This document shows, one piece after another, positions 44,466-48,563 of a stretch of DNA of 64,000 nucleotides. The notes beneath the pieces are model-generated. The model had not been told where the DNA came from, made no database searches, and saw only the letters and a list, made by a program, of their open reading frames with translations. The DNA comes from an uncultured Spirochaetota bacterium (GTDB lineage Bacteria; Spirochaetota; Brevinematia; Brevinematales; JAOACQ01): NCBI GenBank assembly GCA_963768055.1, contig CAVYGN010000001.1, forward strand, positions 1,728,001 to 1,792,000, read 5' to 3'. The translations under genes and the position numbers were made by a program. Positions within the stretch are counted from its first letter, which is position 1. Every line of letters starts with the position of its first letter.

Positions 44466-45206
44466 TTATCTATAAGAATGCAATCCGGATAATAAAAAAG
44501 TTACGCCGAAGTAGTTGAACAGCATTGTCAGGGCGGCAGCGTAAATGAAAGCGCGGCGCAGGAAGATTTTCCCGGCGTGCCTTTCCAGGATCAGCAGGAT
44601 CAATGTAAAGAGGGCCCAGGTTTCTTTCGGGTCCCAGCTCCAGAAAGTCCCCCAGGAAAGCTGCGCCCAGAACCCTCCCGTTATTATCCCGAATGCGGTA
44701 AAATAAAAAGCCTGCTTCATTTCAGGTTCAAGATAATCTTCAGCCCTTTTTAAGCCTGCCTGGCCTAAGATTGTCAGGACAAGACCGATCGTAAGCGCCG
44801 CATAGCCGATGAATATTCCCGGCACATGGAACCATATCCAGAAAGATTCAAGCGCCGGGGGCCCCTCTCCCGCAATTTTCATTTCTTCAGGCATTAAAAA
44901 GGCTCCAGCCATTATTAAAACAGCGGGCACCAGGGCGAATGCCTTTATCTTTTCAGGAAAACGGGACAGCAAAACGATCTTCACCGCATAGAGAAAAGCA
45001 AAAAAAACCATGGATTCGTACATTCCGGCGAAAGGGGCATGCCCTGCGGTAACTGCCCTTATGATTATCCAGCAAACGAGGGATAAAATACCCGCATAGG
45101 CATAAAAAGAACTGCCGCGGATTTTAAAAAACAGATTTAATAAAATATAAAAAGCCAGCAAAACGCTGCCTGCGGAAAGCAGGAACGATTCAAGTACCAG
45201 CGTCAT
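44466..45206 (-). CDS. ccsA: Cytochrome c biogenesis protein CcsA/ResC (system II)
   Basis: WWD motif WAQLSWGTFWSWDPKETW, GHAP, WFHV, GLHSY. Confidence 0.92.
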   Translation of the reverse strand: MTLVLESFLLSAGSVLLAFYILLNLFFKIRGSSFYAYAGILSLVCWIIIRAVTAGHAPFAGMYESMVFFAFLYAVKIVLLSRFPEKIKAFALVPAVLIMAGAFLMPEEMKIAGEGPPALESFWIWFHVPGIFIGYAALTIGLVLTILGQAGLKRAEDYLEPEMKQAFYFTAFGIITGGFWAQLSWGTFWSWDPKETWALFTLILLILERHAGKIFLRRAFIYAAALTMLFNYFGVTFLLSGLHSYR

Positions 45207-45913
45207 TTTTTCATACCTTCATCGCAGTCTGTATACTGACGGGGATAAAAAATAAAAACACCCGTTAAAAGGAGGAAAATTACCGAAAATACACCCAGGG
45301 ACAGTAAAAAGGGGGAACTGACAAACCTCAGGACGCTTACAGTCCTGTAATTGTTTCTAATTATTCTGAAACCGTATTGCCGCAGGAGGGGAATATCGAC
45401 GGACTTTTCATCGAAAAGGCCGCTGCTAAAAACCGCACCGGTTTTATCAGCCAGAACAAAATTGAATATCATCCTTCCATTGATCCTTTCAAAGGGTTCA
45501 AATCTGAATATAAGCCCGTTTTCAGCGACAAGCTCCTCTTTCAAATCCGTCATATCAAAAGTACGGCCCCTGAAAGAAATCATCAAACTTTTAAATCCGA
45601 AATAATATCCTTTCTGATAGATATCCAATCCCTTAAACGAGGCCGGTTTATTGACCGATATTTCCGTGTAGGCGGAAGATCCTGGCGATAATATATCGAT
45701 ATCTGAAAAAATACAGGCCGTATTTCTCGAATTATTCGAAACTGTAAACAAACTCAGGCCGATTGTCGCAGGAACGCCCAATCCTGCAAGGCTGACCCTT
45801 TCACCCTCGCCTATTTCAATATCGACGGATTTTTGAGTGACCAATGCCAGAATAAAAAAAATAAAAAAAAGTAAGAAAGACCCATGTATCGCCCATAATT
45901 TTAAAGACTTCAT
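45203..45913 (-). CDS. Minimal CcsB/ResB-like cytochrome c biogenesis protein
   Basis: TM with His (WAIHGSFLL), periplasmic ISVNKP..FKG..IYQ motif, C-terminal TM; ATGA-coupled to ccsA. Confidence 0.7.
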   Translation of the reverse strand: MKSLKLWAIHGSFLLFFIFFILALVTQKSVDIEIGEGERVSLAGLGVPATIGLSLFTVSNNSRNTACIFSDIDILSPGSSAYTEISVNKPASFKGLDIYQKGYYFGFKSLMISFRGRTFDMTDLKEELVAENGLIFRFEPFERINGRMIFNFVLADKTGAVFSSGLFDEKSVDIPLLRQYGFRIIRNNYRTVSVLRFVSSPFLLSLGVFSVIFLLLTGVFIFYPRQYTDCDEGMKK

Positions 45914-47338
45914 CTAACGACCGGCCTTGAAGAACTTGATCTGATAGATATCCTGGGGCGTTTTTTTACCCTTTATTTTCCGGCCGGCCAGTATGTCGGC
46001 TTCCACCAGGTCCGGCACTGTCCTGTAAAAAGACTCCGTGGTCAGTATAGTGCCGGGCTTCGCCATATCACAGAGACGCGAAGCGACATTAACTGTGTCA
46101 CCGATCACCGCGTACTCCCGGCGGTTTTTGCTGCCTATATTTCCCGCCAGCACTTCTCCGATATTGATCCCTACGCCCACTTCGAGGCCCAGTTTAAGCG
46201 ACTTGACCCTGTTGATAATTTCAAAAGCGCAATTTATCGCTGCCCTGCTGTCCTCGAATACGGCCATTATCGCGTCCCCTATGAATTTATCCACGTCTCC
46301 GCCGCATTGCTCTACGGTCTCGGCCTGGGTTTCAAGGATCCTGTTAAGGTTTTCGATTACTTCCTCCTCCTTGTGGCTCTCGGTGTAAGCCGTGAATCCC
46401 CTGACATCCGAAAACAGGACGACTATATTTTTTCTTCTCTTGATCAGGGATAACTCACCGCCATTCTCGATCTGCGTCCTTGTAGATCCGGAAACATATT
46501 TTGAAAGTTTAAAACGCTCTTCAAGCCCCTTTATCATTATATTGATCCTCTGTGCCAGGCTGCCGAGTTCGTCCCTTCTTTTCAAATCGCACCTCGCGGT
46601 AAAATCTCCCTCCCCGAGGAGTTCTACCGCTTTGCCGATCTTCCTGATAGGGTTTATTACAAGGTTCCTGAAAAAAACGATCAGTACAAGGATCAGTATA
46701 ACAGCGACCGATCCGAAGAATGCAATTATCAGGTCTCTCGCCCGGTCTATCTGTAGGTAAGTTTGGACAAGCGACAACTTGTAACTTAAAACGCCCCTGA
46801 AGGGAAATTCGCTCCCATGGCACTTCATGCAATCCGACAGGTTAGTTATCGGGTAATAATATTCCAGTAGCTTCAGTTTTTCGTCAACATCCACCCTCCT
46901 GGTTTTACTTTTCAGCACGTCAGCCACATCGTCTTTGCCGTCCTCGATTTCGGCTTCAGTCCTCTTGTCCTGTATCCTGGGAGTTTCTTCGAAATAATAA
47001 TTCGACTGGTGCGAATTTACATATTCTAGGGTTTTGTAATCGCTGAAAGCAAGCATGCCGTTTGTCCTGTATATAGAGATTTCCTTGTAATCCCCTTCAT
47101 TCCTCAATTCCTCCATGCTTTTTACAAGAAGAGGGGCCTTGCCGTCCAGCATCATATTTCTGAGGACTGTCGTAAGCGTTTCGGTGTTCAAGTTCAAACC
47201 CCGTTCAGCCTCGGCTATCAGGTTAGTCCTCTGCGTATAATACATAAAATATACTGTAAATATTCCGGTTATGAAGAGGACAGAGATTATCAGGGTTATT
47301 ATCCTGAATTCAATCGATGAAAATCGCCCTGTTTTCAT
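45914..47338 (-). CDS. Membrane class III adenylate/guanylate cyclase with periplasmic haem-c (CxxCH) sensor and HAMP domain
   Basis: TM-periplasmic domain with CMKCH-TM-HAMP (RRDELGSLA)-cyclase (FSDVRGFT, VDKFIGD, GDTVNVASRL); GGAGG RBS before ATG 47338. Confidence 0.9.
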   Translation of the reverse strand: MKTGRFSSIEFRIITLIISVLFITGIFTVYFMYYTQRTNLIAEAERGLNLNTETLTTVLRNMMLDGKAPLLVKSMEELRNEGDYKEISIYRTNGMLAFSDYKTLEYVNSHQSNYYFEETPRIQDKRTEAEIEDGKDDVADVLKSKTRRVDVDEKLKLLEYYYPITNLSDCMKCHGSEFPFRGVLSYKLSLVQTYLQIDRARDLIIAFFGSVAVILILVLIVFFRNLVINPIRKIGKAVELLGEGDFTARCDLKRRDELGSLAQRINIMIKGLEERFKLSKYVSGSTRTQIENGGELSLIKRRKNIVVLFSDVRGFTAYTESHKEEEVIENLNRILETQAETVEQCGGDVDKFIGDAIMAVFEDSRAAINCAFEIINRVKSLKLGLEVGVGINIGEVLAGNIGSKNRREYAVIGDTVNVASRLCDMAKPGTILTTESFYRTVPDLVEADILAGRKIKGKKTPQDIYQIKFFKAGR

Positions 47339-47428
47339 AGCGTCCTCCAGGATGATAAGAAAGTGCTCTAAAGTGATTATCAAATATAATTAAATTGCAT
47401 ACGATTTGTCAATAAATAAATTGCAACT

Positions 47429-47560: not shown

Positions 47561-47890
47561 ATAATAAAAAAGTTGCTGATATCTATCCTTTTAATAATCC
47601 CCGTATTAACTTTTGTTTATCCCGCAGGGGCTGAAGAGACCTTTTTCAATGCCGCTGCCAAAGGCGATGTTTTGTTTATTAAAAATTATAAAGGCAATGT
47701 TAACGCGGCGGATAAAAACGGTATGACGGCTTTGATGCTGGCGGCCCAAAACGGACGATCTGAAACTGTTGAATTATTGATCACGGATAAGGCCGACGTT
47801 AATATCGCGGATAATAATGGTTATACGGTTTTATCGCTGACAAAATATCCTTCTATTATAAATCTTTTGAAAAAAGCCGGCGCAAAATAA
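47561..47890 (+). CDS. Secreted ankyrin-repeat protein (short paralog)
   Basis: VNAADKNGMTALMLAA..G repeats; the codon at RBS distance is ATA (47561), in-frame TTG at 47573. Confidence 0.75.
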   Translation: MIKKLLISILLIIPVLTFVYPAGAEETFFNAAAKGDVLFIKNYKGNVNAADKNGMTALMLAAQNGRSETVELLITDKADVNIADNNGYTVLSLTKYPSIINLLKKAGAK

Positions 47891-47915
47891 TCTTTCCGCA
47901 CAGGAGGAGTTTTCA

Positions 47916-48563
47916 ATGAAATTGCTGCCTGTTTTAATTATATTAATTATCACCGCCTTCAGCTTTGTCAATCCTGAAGAGGTTTATTCTGAAGGGGGCC
48001 AAGAAACTTTGATAGAGGCCGTTACAAACGGCGATGCAGCTTTTATTAAAAGTTATAAAGGCGATGTAAACGCGGCGGATGAAAACGGTGAAACGGCTTT
48101 GATGTATGCGGCCGTCGAAGGAAAAACTAACGTAATAAAAGCATTGATCGTGGCGAAAGCCGATGTCAACGCAATGGATAAAAACGGCAGGACCGCTTTA
48201 ATGGCCGCGGCCAATAAGGGAGGAATTACCGCTGTTAAAATGCTGATAAAGGCAAAGGCTAATATAAACACGGCGGACAAGGACGGCTGCACGGTTTTGA
48301 TGGCGGCGGCACAGAACGGGTACACAGATATAATTAAACTATTGATCGAGGCCCGGGTTAATGTCAATGCGGCGGATAATAAAGGTATGACGGCTTTAAT
48401 GCATGCATCCAACTGGGGTCAGATTGATATTGTCAGGGCATTGATCGTGGCGAAAGCCGATGTCAACGCAATGGATAAAAACGGCAGGACCGCTTTGAAT
48501 TACGCTTCCCTGCATGGCCAATCGGGTATAATGGAAATTTTGATCAATGCCGGAGCGTATTAA
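47916..48563 (+). CDS. Secreted ankyrin-repeat protein
   Basis: Signal peptide and about five 33-aa ankyrin repeats (ADVNA.D..G.TALM.A). Confidence 0.92.
   Translation: MKLLPVLIILIITAFSFVNPEEVYSEGGQETLIEAVTNGDAAFIKSYKGDVNAADENGETALMYAAVEGKTNVIKALIVAKADVNAMDKNGRTALMAAANKGGITAVKMLIKAKANINTADKDGCTVLMAAAQNGYTDIIKLLIEARVNVNAADNKGMTALMHASNWGQIDIVRALIVAKADVNAMDKNGRTALNYASLHGQSGIMEILINAGAY
48141..48496 (+). repeat. Exact 59-bp direct repeat inside the ankyrin gene (48141-48199 and 48438-48496)
   Basis: GCATTGATCGTGGCGAAAGCCGATGTCAACGCAATGGATAAAAACGGCAGGACCGCTTT twice, 297 bp apart. Confidence 0.9.

Follow-up and report, generated by a model that had tools for sequence, protein, structure and literature searches.

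The sensors GSU0582 and GSU0935 of Geobacter sulfurreducens (PDB 3B47 and 3B42; PF21563 and PF11845) have a periplasmic domain between two transmembrane (TM) segments, in which one CxxCH precedes the second segment by about 30 residues. A HAMP domain comes next, and the output is that of a chemoreceptor. In Wolinella succinogenes (NrfI of nrfHAI, CcsA1 and CcsA2), a gene for a CcsA-type cytochrome c synthase lies within the operon of the protein matured, and these synthases are additional, motif-specialised isoenzymes that accompany a general one and serve respiratory enzymes. We analysed a stretch of 64,000 nucleotides (referred to as the window; position 1 is its first letter) from an uncultured Spirochaetota bacterium of the Brevinematales (assembly GCA_963768055.1, contig CAVYGN010000001.1, positions 1,728,001 to 1,792,000, forward strand), in which a gene for a receptor of the Geobacter type, here with a class III nucleotide cyclase instead of the chemoreceptor output, is directly followed by ccsB and ccsA. 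The explanation that we favour, and consider likely, is that a haem-c receptor cyclase is made together with the sole and general CcsBA of the cell. In comparison to W. succinogenes, there is a single synthase, the attachment motif is the canonical CxxCH and the operon partner is a signalling protein.

Haem-based gas sensors that control second-messenger synthesis are also known as H-NOX and NosP proteins acting with cyclases or kinases. These are cytoplasmic, use b-type haem and are usually separate polypeptides, whereas the receptor described here would carry a covalent c-type haem in the periplasm and has its output fused. On the profile and fold matches given below, its sensor can be assigned to the known sCache_heme family (DUF3365/Tll0287/Mcp40H-20; GSU0582/GSU0935 type), which has been defined in a 2026 preprint with CxxCH conserved to 99% (PMC12889525). 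According to the main text of that preprint, ligand data exist for a single signalling member, the sCache_heme-TM-HAMP receptor of P. azotoformans; it binds nitric oxide (NO), slowly, without forming a stable complex with O2 (PMC12889525; 10.64898/2026.05.25.727664). It shares the domain order with our protein but has no enzymatic output of its own; it acts by way of a Ser/Thr kinase encoded in its operon, where our operon encodes ccsBA and that of other lineages a cytochrome P460. The preliminary description of this locus, made from the DNA letters, knew of no characterised example. This stands in so far as the main text of the family preprint characterises no cyclase-fused member by ligand or output, but the family itself has been defined and Guanylate_cyc is listed among its fused outputs in a figure legend (PMC12889525). 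The terms 'P460' and 'CcsA' are absent from the main texts of both preprints (PMC12889525; 10.64898/2026.05.25.727664).

Three open reading frames (ORFs) were found at the predicted sites, all on the minus strand, as are the features given below: the sCache_heme-HAMP-class III nucleotide cyclase of 474 amino acids (45914-47338, stop codon at 45914-45916), a short CcsB/ResB-like protein of 236 amino acids (45203-45913) and CcsA of 246 amino acids (44466-45206). The cyclase ORF spans 45914-47383 if it starts at a TTG and 45914-47338 if it starts at an ATG. We took 47338 as the start because all orthologues begin with the MK... N-terminus that matches this ATG, and because a promoter-like site overlaps the TTG. 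This site (TTGACA-18-TATATT, 47383-47412, upstream of the cyclase ATG) was called from its agreement with the consensus alone, at 11 of 12 positions, and ranks best among 14 sites in the region. The cyclase stop codon abuts the ccsB start codon (...GGTCGT TAG ATG AAG... at 45916-45911), and ccsB and ccsA overlap by ATGA (...AAA AAATGACG..., i.e. ...AAAAAATGACGCTG..., at 45206-45203). As part of the favoured explanation, the three genes are likely to form one transcription unit in this Brevinematales-like genome.

The cyclase protein has just two hydrophobic segments, TM1 (residues 13-31; 47245-47302) and TM2 (residues 203-221; 46676-46732), on either side of the CxxCH domain (residues 36-204; 46727-47233). 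The positively charged N-terminus (MKTGR) is taken as cytoplasmic and basic residues follow TM2 as well, before a HAMP domain (residues about 223-274; 46517-46672; PF00672, 40.5 bits), so that the sensor domain is predicted to be extracytoplasmic. Within it, the putative haem-c attachment motif CMKCH occupies residues 170-174 (46817-46831). A profile of ten periplasmic-domain sequences matched 3B47 (E 2.9e-5) and 3B42 (E 2e-4) in the PDB with the CxxCH motifs aligned. An AlphaFold2 model of the domain (mean predicted local distance difference test 77.5, predicted template modelling score 0.69), in which helix 133-139 bears the motif, returned 3B42 and 3B47 as the first Foldseek matches (E 3.5e-5), followed by WalK, DcuS, CitA and other extracytoplasmic single-Cache/PAS sensors. 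Identity in the fold alignment is low (10-16%), and so are the TM-scores to 3B42 and 3B47 (0.38-0.52), which we ascribe to the swapped dimers in those crystals. M63 in the MML stretch (residues 62-64; 47147-47155) of the N-terminal helix (NMML) is invariant in three alignments, pairs with LMMAG of 3B47 and is a candidate distal haem ligand.

Homologues of the sensor were collected with its profile by an exhaustive HMMER search of 1.84 billion representative proteins, which gave 583 matches at E <= 1e-3 and 314 at E <= 1e-10. CxxCH is present in all 140 representatives whose match spans the motif among the best 150 of the 583, and is likewise kept in 10/10 and 26/26 sequences of two separate alignments. 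A class III cyclase domain was found on 25 of the same 150. Among the best 100 homologues, Pfam domains include HAMP (65), PF21563 (24, at E <= 1e-5), HATPase_c (20), Guanylate_cyc (19), Hpt (15), MCPsignal (11) and GGDEF (8).

The catalytic domain of the cyclase (residues about 300-459; 45962-46441) matches Guanylate_cyc (PF00211) with 73 bits, and its best PDB match by phmmer is CyaB of P. aeruginosa (3R5G, E 1.5e-23). All catalytic motifs align with those of CyaB, namely FSDVRGF (309-315) with FSDIRGF, DKFIGD (350-355) with DKFVGD and NVASRL (417-422) with NLASRL, and both metal-binding Asp residues, the substrate Lys and the transition-state Asn/Arg pair are all present. The preliminary description had proposed this layout from the letters: three coupled genes, a TM-periplasmic CxxCH domain-TM-HAMP-cyclase protein with CMKCH at its present position and kinship with the Geobacter sensors, a catalytically complete cyclase with the ATP-specifying Lys, and a system II pair formed by a 236-residue CcsB/ResB-like protein and a CcsA with a WWD motif. 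All of this is borne out by the Pfam matches, the hydropathy and the alignments, and the CxxCH is conserved in the homologues.

CcsB/ResB proteins of full length are multi-TM proteins of about 450-550 amino acids, an architecture from which the CcsB of the window departs at 236 residues, against a ResB profile of 486 positions. It matches ResB (PF05140) with 26.8 bits at a cut-off of 24.6, and no NCBIfam family matched it. Strong hydrophobic segments lie at its two ends (8-26 and 203-221), and a weaker one (40-58) is read as periplasmic. Its sole histidine, H10 (45884-45886), stands at the start of the first helix, the helix at which system II CcsB proteins have their one conserved His, and is invariant in 6/6 orthologues; these measure 316-319 amino acids in two related genomes (G013 and G017) and 228-251 in the forms of family f1. 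A word-based homologue search with the short CcsB returned itself alone, and a six-sequence profile returned three proteins. A CcsB apparently pared down to two TM helices, with the single conserved His kept, is new. We assume that it is competent as a synthase partner. In one relative (G001) the CcsB-like protein is even shorter (L046:4949-5449), having 166 amino acids, an internal gap and most of the periplasmic domain missing; this genome nonetheless keeps the cyclase, a cytochrome oxidase subunit with a cytochrome c domain (COX2-cyt c) and a PD40-CxxCH protein.

CcsA has a standard core. It matches Cytochrom_C_asm (PF01578) with 96.4 bits and aligns to residues 673-899 of the ResB/ResC-type system II enzyme CcsBA of H. 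hepaticus (7S9Y), with which it shares the WWD motif (WGTFWSWDPKETW, residues 185-197; 44616-44654) and three histidines, P-His1 (H127), TM-His2 (H210) and P-His2 (H243, in the C-terminal HSY). These histidines are described as required in CcsA (PMC6299221).

The window genome (G000; 2 contigs, 3.69 Mb, 94.75% complete) contains just one gene each for PF01578 and PF05140, both at this locus, and a local hidden Markov model (HMM) scan of all its six-frame ORFs agrees on a single ccsA and a single ccsB. PF01578 also covers CcmC and CcmF, so that no sign of a system I was seen in the genome. A census of CxxCH found the motif in 18 of 3442 non-overlapping ORFs of at least 70 amino acids, where about 1.6 are expected from composition, and four of these are plausible exported haem proteins. 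Besides the cyclase they are a chemoreceptor (C2:119309-121123, L012), which shares 31% identity with the cyclase over sensor and HAMP (E 7e-46), its CALCH pairing with CMKCH; the COX2 protein with a C-terminal Cytochrom_C domain (CLSCH, PF00034, E 2e-5), which adjoins COX1 and is a caa3-type CoxB; and a PD40 beta-propeller protein (G000:C1:863588-864955, L008) that has CVGCH and an N-terminus resembling a signal peptide. This PD40 protein is found in 5/41 related genomes, all of them ccsA-bearing, and its orthologues in G007 and G011 (L050:9049-10401; L051:6905-8236) keep the CxxCH and sit some 3 kb away from ccsA. The PD40 protein may represent a haem-c propeller of a kind not yet described. 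The haem-c chemoreceptor has an orthologue in G003 (C1:966961), and the same signal may feed both cAMP and chemotaxis through the cyclase and this paralogue.

We did not count the remaining 14 ORFs as cytochromes: 13 encode cytoplasmic enzymes of Fe-S, Zn or other type, among them glutamate synthase, radical SAM proteins, Fur, DnaJ, IleRS, PheRS, acetate kinase, a methyltransferase, an IS1595 transposase, Zn alcohol dehydrogenases and ferredoxins, and one is an ORF of 78 amino acids without a family. A further 23 longer stop-to-stop ORFs with CxxCH outside the gene set are shadows inside longer ORFs on other frames. The only other CxxCH ORF of the window is a Zn alcohol dehydrogenase, as judged by its sequence and the Pfam match of a paralogue. 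The window therefore holds no respiratory cytochrome c, as had been proposed, and the genome outside it has one, the COX2-cyt c protein. Since CcsBA is the sole such synthase of the genome, it should mature the sensor and the other CxxCH proteins as well, and it is probably the general synthase for a very small set of c-type cytochromes, with at least three substrates besides the sensor cyclase. A single synthase with four candidate substrates is not the arrangement of NrfI, where an extra synthase serving one substrate stands beside a general one.

On these grounds we infer that CcsBA would export haem and attach it covalently, as c-type haem, to CMKCH in the periplasm. The cyclase would be a dimeric membrane receptor with one haem in each periplasmic single-Cache domain. 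Ligand binding or a redox change at the haem would be passed on through TM2 and HAMP to the class III cyclase dimer and would either raise or lower its activity, and the operon link would guarantee joint production of sensor and synthase.

The linkage was followed through 41 genomes, including that of the window. ccsA (PF01578) is present in 8/41 and the sensor profile in 6/41, and all six sensor genomes have ccsA. Full-length cyclase orthologues occur in G001, G003, G006, G013 and G017. Cyclase and ccsA lie within 2.5 kb of each other in 5/6 genomes having both: cyclase, ccsB and ccsA are contiguous in G000, G003 and G017 and are spread over two contig ends in G013, while in G001 the cyclase and ccsBA are separated by two inserted genes. 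Only in G006 is the cyclase unlinked to ccsBA, and G007 and G011 have ccsA and no sensor. The unlinked cyclase of G006 is closely followed, on the opposite strand, by a small gene for a Cytochrome_CBB3-type cytochrome c (L054:6265-6528; G006:C13:101294-101533, minus strand). The three-gene neighbourhood proposed earlier is thus conserved in relatives, and the linkage is real, yet the synthase is probably not private. COX2-cyt c occurs in G000, G001, G003 and G006 only (genera g1 and g3), and six queries (COX2-cyt c, PD40-CxxCH, PF13442, PF00034, PF03150 and PF14537; not a census) found none of these in G013 and G017.

Some relatives of the window genome have a further gene upstream of the cyclase, for a cytochrome P460 (PF16694, E 1e-10 to 2e-15) with a CxxCH near each C-terminus. 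One copy is present in G003, two each in G013 and G017 and one at a second cyclase copy of G006, so that cyclase and P460 are paired at 4/7 loci in relatives. The second G006 copy (L055:5370-6778; G006:C3) breaks shortly before the CxxCH into two ORFs that overlap, owing either to an assembly error or to a frameshift that made it a pseudogene. P460 has been lost from the window genome. The linkage at our locus may be a relic, an ancestral cassette of P460, sensor cyclase and ccsBA having entered a cytochrome-free spirochaete lineage, with P460 lost here, ccsBA co-opted for new cytochromes and the adjacency left without regulatory meaning. The restriction of ccsA to so few relatives, the order P460-cyclase-ccsBA retained in G003, G013 and G017, the two-gene insertion in G001 and the unlinked G006 cyclase, and the confinement of COX2-cyt c to two genera all agree with such a history. 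However, the abutting and overlapping stop and start codons in the window suggest selection for coupled expression, and we regard the relic as possible without being the probable account.

The pairing is not confined to these relatives. With a cyclase alignment as the query we scanned 4/64 parts of a set of genome contigs and 14/64 parts of a set of metagenome contigs and obtained 160 loci. They are not de-replicated; L067 and L170, for instance, seem to be one sequence, as do L171 and L172. A single full-length sensor followed by a cyclase is present at 29/160 loci, and at 27 of these 29 an ORF of the P460 family is directly adjacent on the same strand, downstream in 25 and upstream in 2; the two loci without it end 28 and 128 bases past the cyclase. 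Stop and start codons of cyclase and P460 often overlap, and Pfam confirmed 12 of the P460 assignments. Examples, within L060-L178, are L061:5971-7916, L064:5965-7913 and L086:5944-7939; further ones are L047:4315-6251, L048:6928-9474 and L052:3277-5786. Named hosts of the loci include Spirochaetaceae, Spirochaetales, Sediminispirochaeta, Leptospirales, SAR324 and metagenome-assembled genomes of Desulfobacteraceae. A match to ccsA or ccsB was found at 0/160 outside loci, and the link to ccsBA is therefore specific to this spirochaete clade. Eleven more loci have partial or tandem sensors, and ten of these are without P460; the remaining one (L156) has a partial sensor and a P460. Cyclases with three or four sCache_heme repeats in tandem, all bearing a CxxCH, were seen at L066, L089, L147, L164, L169, L175, L177, L182, L183 and L189; none of these ten has an adjacent P460. 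In L089 the motifs stand at residues 148, 278 and 408.

A profile of the P460 proteins matches solved structures of cytochromes P460 and c'-beta, the best being 7EAD (E 2.9e-19). The profiled proteins share an invariant Lys (IIVKE) that coincides in the alignment with the Lys in ILVKL of M. capsulatus P460, at a position where c'-beta proteins have Val or Phe; this Lys we take to be the haem cross-link. The pairing of P460 and cyclase outside this clade at 27/29 loci is new, and a full-text literature search found no paper linking cytochrome P460 with adenylate cyclase, nor one on Brevinematales and cytochromes. In a wider and more tentative reading, which we put forward as somewhat short of probable, the window would hold a decayed copy of a so far unrecognised, self-sufficient periplasmic signalling cassette made up of P460, sCache_heme cyclase and minimal CcsBA. 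P460 and the haem-c sensor would jointly turn hydroxylamine/NO chemistry into cyclic adenosine monophosphate (cAMP), and a haem lyase of its own would let the cassette work in lineages otherwise without cytochrome c. The P460-cyclase pair would then be a widespread two-gene signalling unit of Spirochaetota, SAR324, Desulfobacteraceae and the organisms behind many metagenome contigs. G013 and G017 fit this reading, since no other cytochrome c was detected in either.

Several observations weigh against the favoured explanation of a haem-c receptor cyclase made with the sole, general CcsBA, or against parts of it. On the side of the synthase, the CcsB match spans just positions 157-291 of the ResB profile, the protein lacks two N-terminal helices (about 75 residues) of the G013 and G017 orthologues, and CcsA scores 129 bits against TIGR03144, under the equivalog cut-off of 187.6 (NCBIfam). 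On the side of the sensor, the window protein taken alone remains under the Pfam cut-offs (PF21563, E 0.066; PF11845, E 0.053). A local HMM that detects P460 elsewhere found none in the window genome (best E 0.46), and ALAD (PF00490) and ferrochelatase (PF00762) were not found in this 94.75%-complete genome. Finally, of the two substrate-specifying positions of the cyclase, the second is occupied by Ala (EYAVIG) and not by the Thr of CyaB and bPAC. As for the two haem-synthesis enzymes, COX1, COX2-cyt c and the synthase are encoded all the same, and the organism may be a haem auxotroph that scavenges haem.

For the signal, our first choice is NO, at a little less than an even chance, because of the biochemistry of the family in the parts of it reported (PMC12889525) and the P460 partner at 27/29 outside loci. 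The lack of P460 makes the argument from P460 neighbours to NO or hydroxylamine (NH2OH) an indirect one for the window genome. Our second choice, which we rate as less likely, is that the sensor instead reports periplasmic redox potential or, through autoxidation, O2, and tunes cAMP and chemotaxis to a microoxic niche. The caa3 oxidase (COX1 and COX2) of the window genome and the same sensor on a chemoreceptor paralogue speak for it, as does the lack of P460, and the Geobacter homologues have reportedly been proposed as redox sensors. The P460 partner that is nearly universal at other loci speaks for NO/NH2OH chemistry instead. Ready autoxidation of sCache_heme proteins, as given in the family preprint, would also suit a redox or O2 sensor, but the sole signalling member tested there acts as an NO sensor without a stable O2 complex (PMC12889525).

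The preliminary description had gone further and seen in CcsBA a private maturase of one signalling protein, the three genes forming a self-contained module from gas or redox to cAMP. The stop and start codon arrangement and the linkage kept in 5/6 genomes with the cyclase would suit this, and in G013 and G017 the sole synthase substrates detected by the six queries lie in the operon. However, ccsBA is the only synthase of the window genome, exported-type CxxCH motifs are also present on CoxB, the chemoreceptor paralogue and the PD40 protein, cyclase and ccsBA are unlinked in G006, and ccsA occurs without the cyclase in G007 and G011. For the window genome the idea of a dedicated maturase therefore fails and we consider it improbable, while for the genus of G013 and G017 it remains a possibility. 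The earlier description had named, as a finding that would count against it, a general maturase of many cytochromes with unconserved linkage. This applies in part: the synthase is probably general, but the linkage is not unconserved.

As to the product, the Lys of DKFIGD is shared with the adenylate cyclase CyaB, where the guanylate cyclase Cya2 (2W01) has DEF, and cAMP is for this reason the most likely one, although with Ala at the second specificity position the assignment is not certain. That this residue is neither Asp nor Thr, and that the Pfam family spans adenylate and guanylate cyclases alike, could be held to favour cyclic guanosine monophosphate as the product or a regulatory pseudo-enzyme, which the adenylate-type Lys and the complete metal Asp and Asn/Arg pairs make very unlikely.

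Two further features were noted. Upstream of the cyclase, in the divergent direction, the window encodes two ankyrin-repeat proteins with signal-peptide-like N-termini (47573-48563, plus strand). Two DsbD_TM matches of equal scores lie near contig ends of the window genome (G000:C1:24415-25020 and C2:1877687-1878292) and are probably a repeat or an assembly overlap joining the two contigs.

A signalling receptor in one operon with the only, stripped-down CcsBA of the cell is unusual, and so is the wider pairing with P460. If the favoured explanation is true, the cyclase would be a tractable c-type haem receptor with an easily assayed output, cAMP. Four cytochrome c candidates and one stripped-down synthase would make this organism a natural minimal system for what CcsB needs. 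The pairing of cyclase and P460 gives a concrete hypothesis for the signal, NO or hydroxylamine, and suggests a signalling role for P460 proteins outside the nitrifiers.

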